This document shows, in pieces, positions 5,877 through 55,690 of a DNA stretch of 64,000 bases. Position numbers and translations under genes: made by a program. Below the pieces are notes generated by a model. The model did not search any database and was not told where the DNA came from. It was given only the letters and a program-made list of their open reading frames with translations. How positions within the stretch are numbered: the first letter of the stretch is position 1; each line of letters starts with the position of its first letter. This DNA is from Aplysia californica (lineage: Eukaryota), in contig NW_004798155.1 of NCBI RefSeq assembly GCF_000002075.1, positions 124,290 to 188,289 on the forward strand, given 5' to 3'.

Positions 5877-7613
5877 CGGAGTGATTATTCTCACCCGGGG
5901 TGAGGATAAACAGGATATTATTCTCACCCGGGGTGAGAATAAAATTGATACTCTATTCTCACCCTGGTTTTTTCGTTTCGGGCATCATAGGACCCCTGTC
6001 AATGAGCGCTCCAGACAACAAAACTCGCCTCCCTCTCTCACTCCGCTGAGCGCGCGAGGCGACTAAAATCCCCAACGGGCAGGCCAGCTCTTGAGCGAGG
6101 GAGGCGACTGTTGTCAATTTGGGGGAAAACCTTATCTTTTGAGCAAATAGCGTTACCTTTTGTTGCCATAATCTATTGGTTCTGTAATTTAAAATTTTAC
6201 TCTTGAATTTTACTCTCAAAATTAAGAAAAAAATAAGCCTAGGGTCAAGGCACTGCATGCCTTAATAAAAATATAAGCCAAGGGTCAAGGCACTGCGTGA
6301 CTTAAAAATAACAGTGGGTTCTGTTAGGGAGTATAACAATTAAACATGTTTTTTGTGTTGTAAACAAATGCCAATTCTAACATTACAACAACAAACTATT
6401 ACTAACATTATTTCATTAAAAACAGCTTTCAGTTAAGGCTATTATTTTTAAAAACATACTACTCTGGCAAGTGAATTCCTTTTTGAATTCAGAATACACT
6501 TGTCTAGGGTTTTGGTGAAAATATTTAAGCTTATTATTCGTGCATACTCTCAAGATTTTTAAAAATGAAACAACAATCCCCGCGGGAGCCTAGAAAAATC
6601 TGCCAGCGCCCTGGGTCAGGTCACGAAAGGTAACTCTAACAATTTACAAATCATTTTCTATCATCCAGCCTACCAGTTCTCAACACCCAGGTAGGCCTAA
6701 GAATAAAAATCCATTGCATTCTCAGACCAGGTGAGAATAATATTCATTTTATTCTCATTCGGGGTGAAAATAACAATATAATATTATTCTCACCCCGGGT
6801 GAGAATAAAATGGATATTATTCTCACCCCAGGTGAGAATAATATTAAATTTTTGCAAGTGGCAATTCTTCGGCGCCGCGCCGGTCAATAGATTGGAAGCT
6901 ATTCTCCAGCATCACGCCGCCGGTCTATTACTAATGAATTACAATGTATTTGTCGGCGCAGATTTTGAGCCAAGGCCTAGTAAGTCTACCTTTCATTATA
7001 TTTTATCTATGATAATTATCTAACGTAACTTTATTCATTTATTTGGGTCGTCCATTTGCTTATTTTAAAATATTGATTCAGTTTTTTTAAACGCTCAAAG
7101 TTGAATTTGTGTCTAAAATCCTGTCTAGTCATATAGTATAGCTTGATGTTTAAAACTTATTTTTTGTTGTTGTAATTTTCGATAAATTTAACTGATATTT
7201 CGCGACCTCAGTATTTTCTTGTCTTATCTCCATTTTTGTAAACAGTGAAAATGTGACTTCTTCTAAATGCTCACTCTCTTTGTTATGAACTCGCGTCACT
7301 AGTGGTGAACATGCACATTTCTCCTAGCACCCTACATAATTCTGAATTGGAGGAATTCAGGCAGTTTGTGTCTGAAAACTTATCGTCTGTATCAATTCGA
7401 AGTGGCACGAAGTGGTGAAGTTATGGGAATTTTTTTCCAAGACAAACAGATGAGAGAGGTATTTGCAAATCTGCGCCGACAAATAATTGATTAGTAATAG
7501 ACCGGCGGCGTGACGCCGAAGAATAGCTTCCGATCTATTGACCGGCGCGACGCCGGAGAATAGACACACTTGCTAAATTTTTATTTTCACCCCCGGTGAG
7601 AATAACGACAGCA
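5877..7613. mobile_element. Non-autonomous Mutator-like element, type 1 (TATTCTCACCCGGGGTGAGAATA palindromes), flanked by (TA)n
   Basis: Starts CGGAGTGAT-TATTC and ends GAATA-ACGACAGCA; palindrome clusters at 5886-5965, 6720-6840 and 7582-7604; internal inverted repeat about 6850-6965 vs 7467-7577. Confidence 0.65.
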
Positions 7614-7649
7614 ATAGATTTTAGATTTCTATATAATATATATATATAT

Positions 7650-10183
7650 GGAAGTGGTTATTCGCACCGGGTGCGCGCATAAGAATTAATATTATTCGCA
7701 CCGGGTGTGTGCATAAGAATTAATATTATTCGCACCGGGTGTTCGAATAAGAAATAATTATATTCGCACAGGGTCGACCCGACCTGCGCGAGATCGCTGC
7801 GTGAGATTGGCAAATGATGCGAGAGTCCGCGAAACTAGGCGGTCTTGGCCTATATAATAAGCTTACCTGCGTAGCATTTTCATTTTTCAAAACAGAGCCC
7901 TGAGGGAAACCTTGCCAGTAGCATTCTGTTGGCCCCAAGGCTATTGCATCGCAAATCTGAAATTACTCAACACCTAGTTCTAGTTTTTCTAGATCTATTC
8001 AGCATGGAAGTGGGAGCCAAGTTCAAGAGCTTAAAATTTTCAGAGTTCACAGAGGCTCTGAAAGAGTATGAAAGTACTAATAACAAAATTCGTGGTGACA
8101 CGATCCACCAAAATTGGCCAAACAGACCCCTTGAGTGCTGTTTACGTGTACCAGTCAATCGGGTTCCAGTGCAAGCAGGGGCAGCGCCACCATTATTACC
8201 TCTTTAAATTAATAAACAATTTTTTAACAAAAAAGGATCAAAGGTGCAGATATAAAATGCACCCTGTAGAGGTTCTATCTAAATGTACACATGTGTACAT
8301 TTTAGTTGACGGCAGCTTGAGGGGGGGGGGGGGGGGGGTCATTTGTGAACAGTCCTTAAGAGTAAAACTGCAATCAATCGGCCATAAATAATATGATGTA
8401 TTATTACAGAGTTACTACATAACGTTGATTTTGGACCTCATTTGTCACACCCAGGTATCCCACCTTTAGTTTTAGGCACAGGGTTTTAATTTTGGAAAGC
8501 ACTGGGAATAGGCCAGAATTGTTCCCAGTGTCACTGGGATGAGGCCAAGAAACTATTCCCAGTGACACTGAGAACAGACAGGCCCATTAGATGTCTAGAT
8601 CTATTGTTCCCACAATGATCTACATGGGCATGATGATGATGGGTTACTAAATACTAGACTATACACATGTATTTTTCTTTATCTAATGTAGATCTAGATA
8701 TTTAAGAGTTGATTAAGATTCTGGTGTGAGTGGAAGAATTTTTTTTAAAAGAAAGGAATGGTCATTCTATGCTTGCTTGTTATTCATCATATACATTAGA
8801 TCTAGATCTAATACGGATTTTGGAGACCACGGTACAGGACAGGCAAAAATCCTTCCCGATTCTCCATTTCTTCTAGAATCTAGGCTACGGTCAAGTCTTG
8901 GCGCAAGTAAACGAAGAGAAGAAAAGTCTGAACTTAATTGAGAAGAGAGCCTACAGTACACGTTAGAAACGAATCTAGATACCTCCACCGTGTGACCGTG
9001 TCTCCCTCTCTTTTCACTGGTCTGGTAAACTTCACCCGCGCTTCTATCGTCTCTCAAATCATTAGTCTCATGGTACCTCTTAGGCCTAGCCTACGCTGGC
9101 AATGTAGGTCCACTAAAGTAAAGCTCTTGAGCAGAGCAAACTATAAAATGTTCCTGGTCAACTTTTCTCTGTTTATTATAATTGATCTGCATGTGGCAGC
9201 TCCCCCCCCCCCCCCCCCCCCCTGTCGAATACTAGATATATAAGTCTAAGTATCCTAATAACTTAAGTGCTGAATGTGCGGTCCACCACAAATTAGCGTA
9301 CTACGACTAATTCAGAAAACCAGGAACCTGCTGGTCCATCCTCCACTTCTGGTCTCCCTCCGCTGCCTTCCCCAGAAAAAAAAAAGGAGCAAAAATAAGC
9401 CTACGACATGTAATCAAGAAAATCAGGAACCTGCTGGTCAATCCTCCACTTCTGGCAGAGAGTTTACAGTATTACTGTAAACCCTCTCTGCTTCTGGTCT
9501 CCCTCCACTGCCTCCCCCTAAAAAGAAACAGCGGCTGGGATCAAGTAATACTATATATAATAGTGAGAACCCTGCGCCTGTTCCTGCGGTAAACGTCCTC
9601 ATCCGATGCCTAGACATTCCGGACTTTGATCTCTTCAATCATTCGGATAACAGGTCCGTTTACAACTTTGTCTCGTCCCCCCTTCTCTCTCTCTCTCTCT
9701 CTCTCTCTCGTGGTATTCTCGCAGCCCTCACTCACTCTGCCTCGCCGGGAACTAGTTCGTGTAGTGGTCGATTAGGACCCATGACTGTATAAGTATAAGT
9801 CCGTTGTTTGCCTAGAGCGCATTAATACATATATAAACACGGTGGGTCCACCAAAGTTCAATCCAGCCCCTATGATCTTTGTCCTTGCGCGATGAGGAGA
9901 AAAAAATGAGGAAATGGTTGGTTGATTTCCATCCTTCTTTTGAAACACCCTGTAGGTGCGAATATACATAACTTCATAGTATTCACACACCCTGTGCGAA
10001 TATAACTTCATATAGTATTCACACACCCTGTGCGAATATAATTTCATAATATTCCCACACCCTGTGCGAAAAAAATTTCATAGTATTCGCACACCCTGTG
10101 CGAATAAAATTTCATAGTATTCGCACACCCAGTGCGAATAAAATTTCAAAGTATTCACATACCCTGTGCGAATAACTACAGCC
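7650..10183 (+). mobile_element. Non-autonomous Mutator-like element, type 2 (TATTCGCACACCCTGTGCGAATA arrays)
   Basis: Starts GGAAGTGGT-TATTC and ends GAATA-ACTACAGCC; 34-bp-period palindrome arrays at 7659-7775 and about 9950-10174; internal decayed coding remnant. Confidence 0.65.
8004..8193 (+). pseudogene. Frameshifted remnant resembling the N-terminal FAR1/ZSWIM3-type DNA-binding domain of MULE-related proteins
   Basis: MEVGAKFKSLKFSEFTEALKEYESTN /frameshift/ TKFVVTRSTKIGQTDPLSAVYVYQSIGFQCKQG; recalls the MxxGxxFxxxxEFxxxxxxY...YxxxxFxC pattern; from memory, not searched. Confidence 0.45.
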
Positions 10184-54819: not shown

Positions 54820-55335
54820 GATGAAATGTCCCGCGTCTGCTGAAGCCTGAAATGAACGCCACAAAAGTGTAGAGCTTGCAAAAGAATGGCGATTGCTAAA
54901 TCATGCTACGCAATTTTCAGTGTAGTAAGTTGTTTTACCAAAGGTTGACTGTTCAGCTGCCAAACCACAAACAATCCTGATATACTGAAATATATTATTG
55001 CATATCCTCATCACTAAAGAAATAATTACCTTCGTTAAGCTGCTGCAATAGTGAACTATTTACCGGGAACAAGTCTAATCCTGGTTCCAAAATATCGATC
55101 TCGCGTGGCCCGCAATCGATGTTTTGAGCAATGTTACCTAGCAACGATGGGGAGCATTCCTTGTTTGTAGTGCACCACACGATGGTTTAAGTCAGTGGTT
55201 TTCACTGTAGCAGTAGATAATCTCCTATTTACTGTGCATTATTTCCACTTGTATTCAGTTACACAGATATATGATGTCAAGAGACAAAAGTTCTCTCTAT
55301 GTTCATGCAAATCATAAGAGTCAATGGTATGTTAT

Positions 55336-55690
55336 GGAAGAGGCTAGCCGTACTTAATGACGGCTAGACTCGTAGTCTAGCCGTACTTATTCTTAATATG
55401 ATGGCTAGATTGACCATTTACAAAAAATAGGCCTACTGAATTGTAAATATAATAATATACATTTTTAGTGTACAGTACCTAAAGTATTTGTATTTGAGAC
55501 GAAACCAGGTGCCTTAATGACAGTGCATGTATTTTAAACCTCCTGTTTTCTAATGTAAATAGGGCCTAAGATAAGTACGGCTAGATAGGGCCAAACCTAG
55601 ATCTAAGTACGGCTAGACTGGCAGTCTAGCCGTACTTAAGTACGGCTAGACTCTCAGTCTAGCCGTACTTAAGTACGGCTAGCCACTTCG
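55336..55690. mobile_element. 355-bp Mutator-like MITE, type 4 (TAGCCGTACTTAAGTACGGCTA palindromes), 9-bp TSD
   Basis: TSD GTATGTTAT at 55327-55335 and 55691-55699; termini GGAAGAGGCTAGCC / GGCTAGCCACTTCG. Confidence 0.85.

Follow-up and report, generated by a model that had tools for sequence, protein, structure and literature searches.

A 64,000-nt stretch of the Aplysia californica genome (assembly GCF_000002075.1, contig NW_004798155.1, positions 124,290 to 188,289; hereafter the window, to which all window coordinates refer) harbors several families of transposable elements whose ends carry series of short palindromes. With a probability of roughly four in five, we consider these to be non-autonomous cut-and-paste transposons that create target site duplications (TSDs) of 9 bp, several of them deletion derivatives of Rehavkus-like Mutator elements (a likeness of layout as described in published papers), with subterminal palindromes that likely bind each family's own transposase. 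The observations behind this reading are the dispersed copies of the elements, their 9-bp TSDs, a fixed 9-nt offset between the terminus and the first palindrome, relics of a DNA-binding exon in types 2, 3 and one copy of type 1b, a DDE transposase domain together with a PHD finger in a copy of type 6, and the co-clustering of the families.

Palindrome-bearing elements in the window

The preliminary description of this DNA had assigned one palindrome to each of four element types and fitted all of them to a single pattern, TAnnCnnAC-N4/5-GTnnGnnTA. The four palindromes are present where they were placed, and the pattern matches the window 14 times, compared with a mean of 0.09 (maximum 1) in 100 Markov-1 resamples, with every match confined to one of two clusters at 5.9-12.3 kb and 55.6-55.7 kb; the type 3 palindrome originally cited, however, has a mismatch in one arm. 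The division into four types needed more revision. What had been called type 1 consists of two subfamilies with different termini, type 1a (CGGAGTGAT / GGCTGTCGT-like) and type 1b (GGAAGTGGC / GGCCACCTC), and a fifth window family, type 6, had been overlooked.

In the first cluster, where all elements lie on the plus strand, a type 1a non-autonomous element (5877..7613) with left terminus CGGAGTGAT, right terminus ACGACAGCA and TATTCTCAC-N5 palindromes at both ends is interrupted by the type 6 element (6854..7573), which has near-symmetric GCAAGTG termini, imperfect palindromes of the TATTCTCCGGCG type, a period of 37 bp and the exact 9-bp TSD TAAATTTTT. No TSD was found for the type 1a copy, whose left flank is a TA microsatellite. 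The 2.5-kb type 2 element that follows (7650..10183; left GGAAGTGGT, right ACTACAGCC) has TATTCGCAC-N5 palindromes with a period of 34 bp and is likewise without a TSD. Further along, a type 3 element (11641..13097; left CGAAGTGAC) with TATTCGGAC-N4 palindromes and a period of 33 bp has lost its right terminus and is interrupted by a type 1b element (11695..12260; left GAAAGTGGC, right GAGGTGGCC), whose left end is tandemly duplicated (83 bp) and whose exact 9-bp TSD, TATTCGGAC, is identical to the type 3 half-site. The second cluster holds a plus-strand type 4 miniature inverted-repeat transposable element (MITE; 55336..55690; termini GGAAGAGGC / GCCACTTCG) with TAGCCGTAC-TTAA palindromes, a period of 33 bp and the exact 9-bp TSD GTATGTTAT.

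Most of the architecture first proposed for these ends agreed with our inspection. Similar left-end 9-mers were found at 5877, 7650, 11695, 11641 and 55336, the two TSDs already described (those of the type 1b and type 4 copies) are exact, and the suggested period of 33-36 bp corresponds to 33 in types 1, 3 and 4, 34 in type 2, and an occasional 36. A palindrome stands beside each left end as claimed, except at 11695, where only a half-site is present. Not mentioned before was that the left and right ends of types 1-3 are unlike each other, one terminus being GAAGTG-like and the other GGC(C/T). A further type 3-like palindrome fragment at 13427-13520 is similar to the variant left arm of another genomic locus (L096).

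Genome-wide copies and target site duplications

Searches of the 927-Mb genome showed all four types to be dispersed multi-copy non-autonomous DNA transposons. The exact left-end pattern had 750 matches (mostly type 1b among the 100 matches listed), the type 4 end 739, and a type 3 end variant 16, with none for the reversed control in any of these searches; type 2 DNA had 122 matches from 40 of 946 candidates scored. For TSDs, we counted fetched copies with two ends, a non-random sample of those first listed or best scoring, that had a 9-bp duplication, allowing one mismatch at the most, at a distance of exactly 9 nt outside the first half-site. Such a duplication was found in 19/23 copies of type 1b, 6/11 of type 2, 7/12 of type 3 and 23/27 of type 4 (together 55/73), and the 9-bp length and 9-nt offset noticed in two window copies are recurrent properties of these types. 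Beyond them, the duplication was present in all three type 5 copies and in neither of two type 9 copies. Target sites have AT-rich edges without a strict consensus. Half-site arrays are inverted at the two element ends, in keeping with the G/C-starting terminal inverted repeats (TIRs) of Mutator and Mutator-like elements (MULEs), with asymmetric terminal 9-mers in types 1-3.

Coding relics and superfamily placement

Protein relics establish the Mutator affinity of the families, with type 4 linked by structure only. The window's type 2 element includes a frameshifted exon for ZSWIM3_N, a Mutator-type DNA-binding domain (8004..8196, plus strand), and an open copy of it elsewhere (L183:1381-1578) matches PF21599 above the cut-off (E 8.7e-8). 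In type 3, a truncated ZSWIM3_N relic (12395..12484, plus strand) lies about 175 bp inside the left end and is matched by our own profile; the corresponding exon in genomic copy L270 matches PF21599 at E 1.6e-5, below the cut-off. A third ZSWIM3_N exon (E 4.6e-7) follows the type 1b left arm of a long copy, L263, in which that arm is 79-87% identical to 7/7 ordinary copies over 175-270 bp. Exons of types 5 (E 2.9e-9) and 9 (E 4e-6) also match PF21599, and the genome search with ZSWIM3_N yielded 132 matches, with 150 of 441 candidates scored. The open copies at L183, L252, L263 and L284 span just the first exon. Longer homologues related to the type 2 exon were also sought, in itself a weak test, which returned one candidate and none at E 0.1 or better.

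The type 6 copy in the window, 81-89% identical in pieces to a transposase-bearing copy designated L152, retains a frameshifted transposase relic (7299..7469, plus strand; tblastn of the L152 frames against the window, E 5e-12) from just before the RNase H-like domain into its start. L152 itself is a 3.6-kb decayed type 6 copy with both ends and an exact TSD that encodes MULE (PF10551, E 1e-9), RNase H-like (PF21056, E 1.3e-19) and PHD finger (PF00628, E 2.5e-7) domains, with a minisatellite specifying an array of 14-residue repeats between DDE and PHD; PHD-like motifs were found by pattern match in 6 further DDE loci. Pfam-based searches gave 37 genome matches for MULE and 59 for RNase H-like, and regions around most of these, although not all 59, were fetched. 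Among the fetched DDE loci, L152 is the only one in which two cognate ends flank the DDE domain. The search for MULE DDE partners that had been suggested succeeded for type 6, in decayed form, but located no DDE domain between two type 1-4 ends in the fetched loci.

Other candidates for autonomous elements were set aside. At L131, a stretch of 4.4 kb with other insertions in it separates a type 2-like right end from a decayed DDE domain; we dropped it as an autonomous type 2 element, its DNA-binding exon being that of another family and the intervening DNA containing long interspersed nuclear element (LINE), Tc1 and P-like pieces. On contig C319 (783600-794650; L127 and L248), a 593-aa open MULE DDE frame is preceded, at a distance of about 8 kb, by a type 5 left end and an open ZSWIM3_N exon. 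The 30 kb fetched showed no right end, so this locus was not counted as an autonomous type 5 element, and the frame is possibly an immobilised or domesticated transposase. Additional ZSWIM3_N exons without recognisable element ends (L258:4236-7911, and L138 with L250), one of them followed by a Gln-rich exon without a MULE match by local profile, are candidates for domesticated DNA-binding genes, whose products might bind palindromes of this sort.

Taken with the 9-bp TSD and the fixed 9-nt offset, the ZSWIM3_N or MULE relics in types 1b, 2, 3 and 6 bear out the earlier proposal of related transposons of Mutator affinity. The linked exons match ZSWIM3_N and not FLYWCH, and thus lack the distinguishing trait of the Phantom/Tm1 group; similarly, 9-bp TSDs and MULE/ZSWIM3 relics differ from the traits of P superfamily foldback elements such as Galileo, which have a THAP domain, a P-type transposase and TSDs of 7-8 bp.

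Comparison with known systems

Rehavkus elements are foldback transposons related to MuDR/Mutator, and the arrangement of MULE DDE, minisatellite and PHD finger in L152 matches their published summary (PMC6446971, PMC12581902). Subterminal tandem repeats in inverted termini are common to Rehavkus and the Aplysia families, whereas neither palindromic repeat units nor a set of families whose sites form a graded series is mentioned in those accounts, which report Rehavkus from arthropods and an annelid (PMC6446971, PMC12581902). Muta1 of Aedes aegypti resembles our families in its terminal motif of about 10 bp with subterminal repeats, its 8-9-bp TSD, its many non-autonomous derivatives with variable repeat number, and possibly its genic insertion bias (PMC5499845, PMC5225508). 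According to the same reports, the repeats of Muta1 come as tandem 12-bp units joined by 3-4-bp linkers, its palindrome is the terminal motif and its ends are symmetric, whereas in Aplysia the repeats themselves are palindromes and the termini are mostly asymmetric. The mosquito also offers a parallel for coexistence, with 14 MULE families described in one genome, 10 of which have their own 9-15-bp repeats (PMC5225508).

Precedent for asymmetric termini comes from Tm1 of root-knot nematodes, a member of the Phantom group that combines asymmetric short terminal motifs with a variable number of subterminal repeats, a 9-bp TSD and MITE-like derivatives, but is described with a FLYWCH domain instead of ZSWIM3_N and with 13-15-bp tandem repeats instead of dyad palindromes (PMC3169594). 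Galileo shares the presence of several subfamilies per genome, whose tips are conserved and whose internal binding sites have diverged, but belongs to another superfamily by its THAP domain and P-type transposase (PMC3688188).

A wider radiation with a common spacing

The radiation comprises at least 8 families, and TAnnCnnAC, put forward as its general rule, fits only types 1-4; types 5, 6 and 9 depart from it with half-sites of 12-13 bp. The extra families have a similar starting 9-mer, a ZSWIM3_N exon of their own and other palindromes, namely TATTTAGGCCAC-N4 in type 5, TATTTCTCCGAAC-N0 in type 9, TCCCGAGACCAGG in type 7 and TAATTGCGACAG in type 8. For types 1, 2, 3, 4, 6, 9 and 5, the periods are 33, 34, 33, 33, 37, 37 and 51 bp and the palindrome lengths 23, 23, 22, 22, 27, 26 and 28 bp, respectively, which identifies the 9-nt offset, the outer TA edge and a gap of one helical turn between palindromes as the conserved features. 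TAnnCnnAC is accordingly a sub-rule of four families within a broader one, by which the terminus spans 9 nt and is often asymmetric, half-sites measure 9-13 bp, and neighbouring palindromes lie 10-11 bp apart (6/7 families). Neither the palindrome series nor this spacing rule was found in the literature searched, which was mostly open-access papers and did not extend to Repbase or Dfam; elements of this overall kind, foldback MULEs that have subterminal repeats, are known, and those databases may already list the families.

Probable recognition of the palindromes

That the palindromes are transposase sites is likely, a reasonable deduction from the biochemistry of Muta1, in which subterminal repeats strengthen binding, raise cleavage and excision, and are required for cleavage (PMC5499845). 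How specifically each would be read is a separate question, to which the substitutions within the arms are relevant. Both arms had been said to change together, and between types they do; within types 1-4, however, 624 unique palindromes (with between-type ties dropped) showed 582 one-sided substitutions versus 1 symmetric.

The preliminary description had envisaged an operator code, in which each transposase dimer would bind its own palindrome only, the families would be mutually orthogonal, and a few residues would map to the nnAC positions. We regard this strict form as possible but doubtful. Differences between types are symmetric at every variable arm position, at least 7 families pair their own DNA-binding exon with their own palindrome, and among the few available pairs 9-bp half-sites accompany short-loop domains and 12-13-bp half-sites accompany long-loop ones, all as such a code would have it. 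Yet these are only 2 short-loop and 2 long-loop pairs, all of them kin, and thus provide no independent covariation. Types 1 and 2 are moreover one base apart per arm, and the commonest type 2 variant, G>A, falls at the very base that separates them (57 one-sided cases), which speaks for loose and against orthogonal reading; in type 1, 23 arms have T>C at position 4. Galileo sets a similar example, with only partial subfamily specificity in electrophoretic mobility shift assays (EMSA) and a THAP domain that cross-bound one of two other subfamilies in its own genome (PMC3688188). An orthogonal code is thus testable, but unsupported so far.

At the other extreme, one or a few promiscuous transposases could move types 1-4 via the shared TAnnCnnAC frame and terminal 9-mer, while drift altered the nn positions, and array turnover together with hairpin-templated repair homogenised them, with no change in the protein. 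We judge this unlikely. It would account for the spacing, offset and GAAGTG-like terminus common to types 1-4, for type 4 arrays with perfect dyads at two centres, and for the lack of a transposase relic in type 4, and maize Mu elements are described as able to swap TIRs and transposases by recombination (PMC10401008). Types 1b, 2 and 3, however, each have a different and strongly diverged DNA-binding exon, and hairpin conversion predicts symmetric within-type variants, of which the arms yielded the single case noted above. Very improbable is a role of the palindromes as DNA structure (foldback hairpins) or host-factor sites, since the fixed offset and the 10-11-bp gap despite different arm lengths fit protein spacing on duplex DNA and Muta1 binding is reported to be governed by repeat number (PMC5499845), even though use of DNA structure has been proposed for foldback elements (PMC3688188), types 1b and 3 contain YY1- and ETS-like words, and the elements lie in CpG-richer DNA.

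Several results weigh against our preferred reading of Rehavkus-like Mutator derivatives with family-specific transposase sites. The interiors of the six window elements have no DNA similarity to one another, so it is their ends and short peptides that mark them as related. Nowhere in the fetched loci did type 1-4 ends flank an intact transposase, no coding relic was detected in type 4 (60 loci and the window copy) or type 1a, none of three two-ended type 1a copies has a 9-bp TSD, and the link of type 1b to ZSWIM3_N depends on the single copy L263. On the supporting side, a domain model from a homologue (predicted local distance difference test score, pLDDT, 73) found its best fold match in AFT2 bound to DNA, a WRKY-GCM1 protein, but the match is middling (Z 5.6, root-mean-square deviation 3.0, 74 aligned), and Foldseek with the same model returned nothing at E 0.001 or better. 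The tree of DNA-binding domains, built from 20 short peptides over 82 columns, has 3 of 17 branches well supported and gives type 3 no resolved position. Its supported groupings include a short-loop clade with types 1b and 2, which have near-identical sites (95/91), and a pair of types 5 and 9, which have long half-sites (92/89); this fits sites and domains descending together, while residue-base rules are beyond the reach of the tree.

Under the preferred reading, the family-specific half-sites would be read by a ZSWIM3_N domain of WRKY-GCM1 type, a spacing of 10-11 bp between palindromes would let several transposase subunits load in phase, and the terminal 9-mer would set the position of the cut. 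Staggered insertion by 9 bp into AT-edged sites of open, promoter-like chromatin would then leave both the TSDs and the pile-ups of elements. Symmetric differences between families would be fixed, as we propose, because both arms must fit the same domain, and would subsequently be copied through the array.

Clusters of elements near gene starts

The families co-cluster and nest, in the window beside gene starts, and the cause may be a chromatin preference or attraction to half-site-like DNA. Another family was present within the locus of about 3 kb in 11/30, 12/30, 9/16, 5/19 and 10/29 loci (total 47/124), as compared with 9 of 147 control tiles, which came from DDE loci and from elsewhere in the window. 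Similarly, 9 of 98 listed type 4 ends have one of the 99 listed type 1/2 ends less than 5 kb away, versus a null mean of 0.99 and maximum of 5 in 5,000 draws for which contig extents were approximated and rows of contig C41 excluded. The CpG observed/expected ratio at elements, a figure that includes the elements' own CpG, is 0.69-0.77 versus 0.51-0.55.

Both window clusters are located upstream of host start codons. The first begins about 100 bp upstream of the first coding exon of a HAUS3-like gene (5588..5773, minus strand; PF14932 E 3.4e-6, below the cut-off), another exon of which (1428-1694) matches PF14932 above the cut-off (E 1.4e-7). The type 4 element lies about 500 bp upstream of the likely start codon of a gene at 52798..54820 (minus strand) with EF-hand Pfam matches in its translation, which we take to be calcyphosin-like. 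A bias toward gene 5′ ends is known for Mu (PMC10401008). Reads over window positions 4500-15000 were dominated by paralogous copies and yielded neither an orthologous empty site nor RNA coverage that could be used for the HAUS3-like exon.

For attraction to half-sites, the evidence amounts to a lead. A half-site occurs within 45 bp of 27/364 unique ends, and 4 ends at 3 loci abut one exactly, in register (window 11686-11694 / 12261-12269, L090:2456 and L037:3896), with type 1b at a type 3 half-site twice and type 3 at a type 2 half-site once. Both TSD copies are seen only in the window case; L090 and L037 have no second TSD to confirm them, and sequence-specific targeting of relatives' half-sites therefore stays a lead. 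Type 2 inserted at the same TATTCAGAAA word three times (L161, L162 and L040), in both orientations and accounting for 3/6 type 2 TSDs; the word belongs to the type 1b interior, and two of these insertions are clearly inside type 1b, in opposite orientations.

Other features of the window

Words resembling YY1 and ETS sites occur in the type 1b interior (11717-12022), and a YY1-like word in type 3 (12989). They are probably from an old transposase promoter, and host genes could obtain promoter elements from them. The word GTTACCTAGCAAC at 55134-55146, which resembles an RFX X-box, lies 200 bp from the type 4 element and upstream of the EF-hand gene. Tracts of (CTAGAT)n are found at 10511-10566, at 54606-54669 and inside many elements, often right after the DNA-binding exon. 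On the plus strand, two long low-complexity open frames of 562 and 627 aa, rich in Ser, Lys and Glu (18768-20456 and 23434-25317), are likely exons of a gene arranged head-to-head with the HAUS3-like gene; the first of them contains a 114-bp tandem repeat and has no Pfam match. Unrelated to the palindromes are a short interspersed repeat (D3/D6/D7) with at least 13 copies and a second family (D11/D17/D19), across 18231-44167 and 58661-63999. Minisatellite arrays with units of 31 bp and 49 bp lie at 42513-43123 and 60914-61207, and a search of Rfam gave 0 matches.

Implications

We conclude that the radiation is real and consists of Rehavkus-like Mutator foldback elements whose repeat units are palindromic, a kind of element already known. 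How transposon families that live side by side retain or lose recognition of their own ends can rarely be tested, because a graded series of protein and site is seldom available. In Aplysia, several families in one genome allow short DNA-binding exons to be paired with their putative sites, as a cheap panel for EMSA or systematic evolution of ligands by exponential enrichment (SELEX) with Mutator-type WRKY-GCM1 domains. As a speculation that we think will more probably fail, this one genome might be a natural library of at least 7 Mutator DNA-binding domains with their own dyad sites, where the TA(T) outer edge, the 9-nt cleavage offset and the one-turn gap are fixed, half-site length (9 to 13 bp) and inner bases follow loop length, the pairs are for the most part orthogonal, and transposases in addition tend toward insertion at the half-sites of relatives, which builds composite clusters close to promoters. 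The 9-nt offset followed by palindromes spaced by one helical turn would be a first structural rule for Rehavkus-like ends, and the pile-ups of elements upstream of host genes bear on promoter annotation in this animal.

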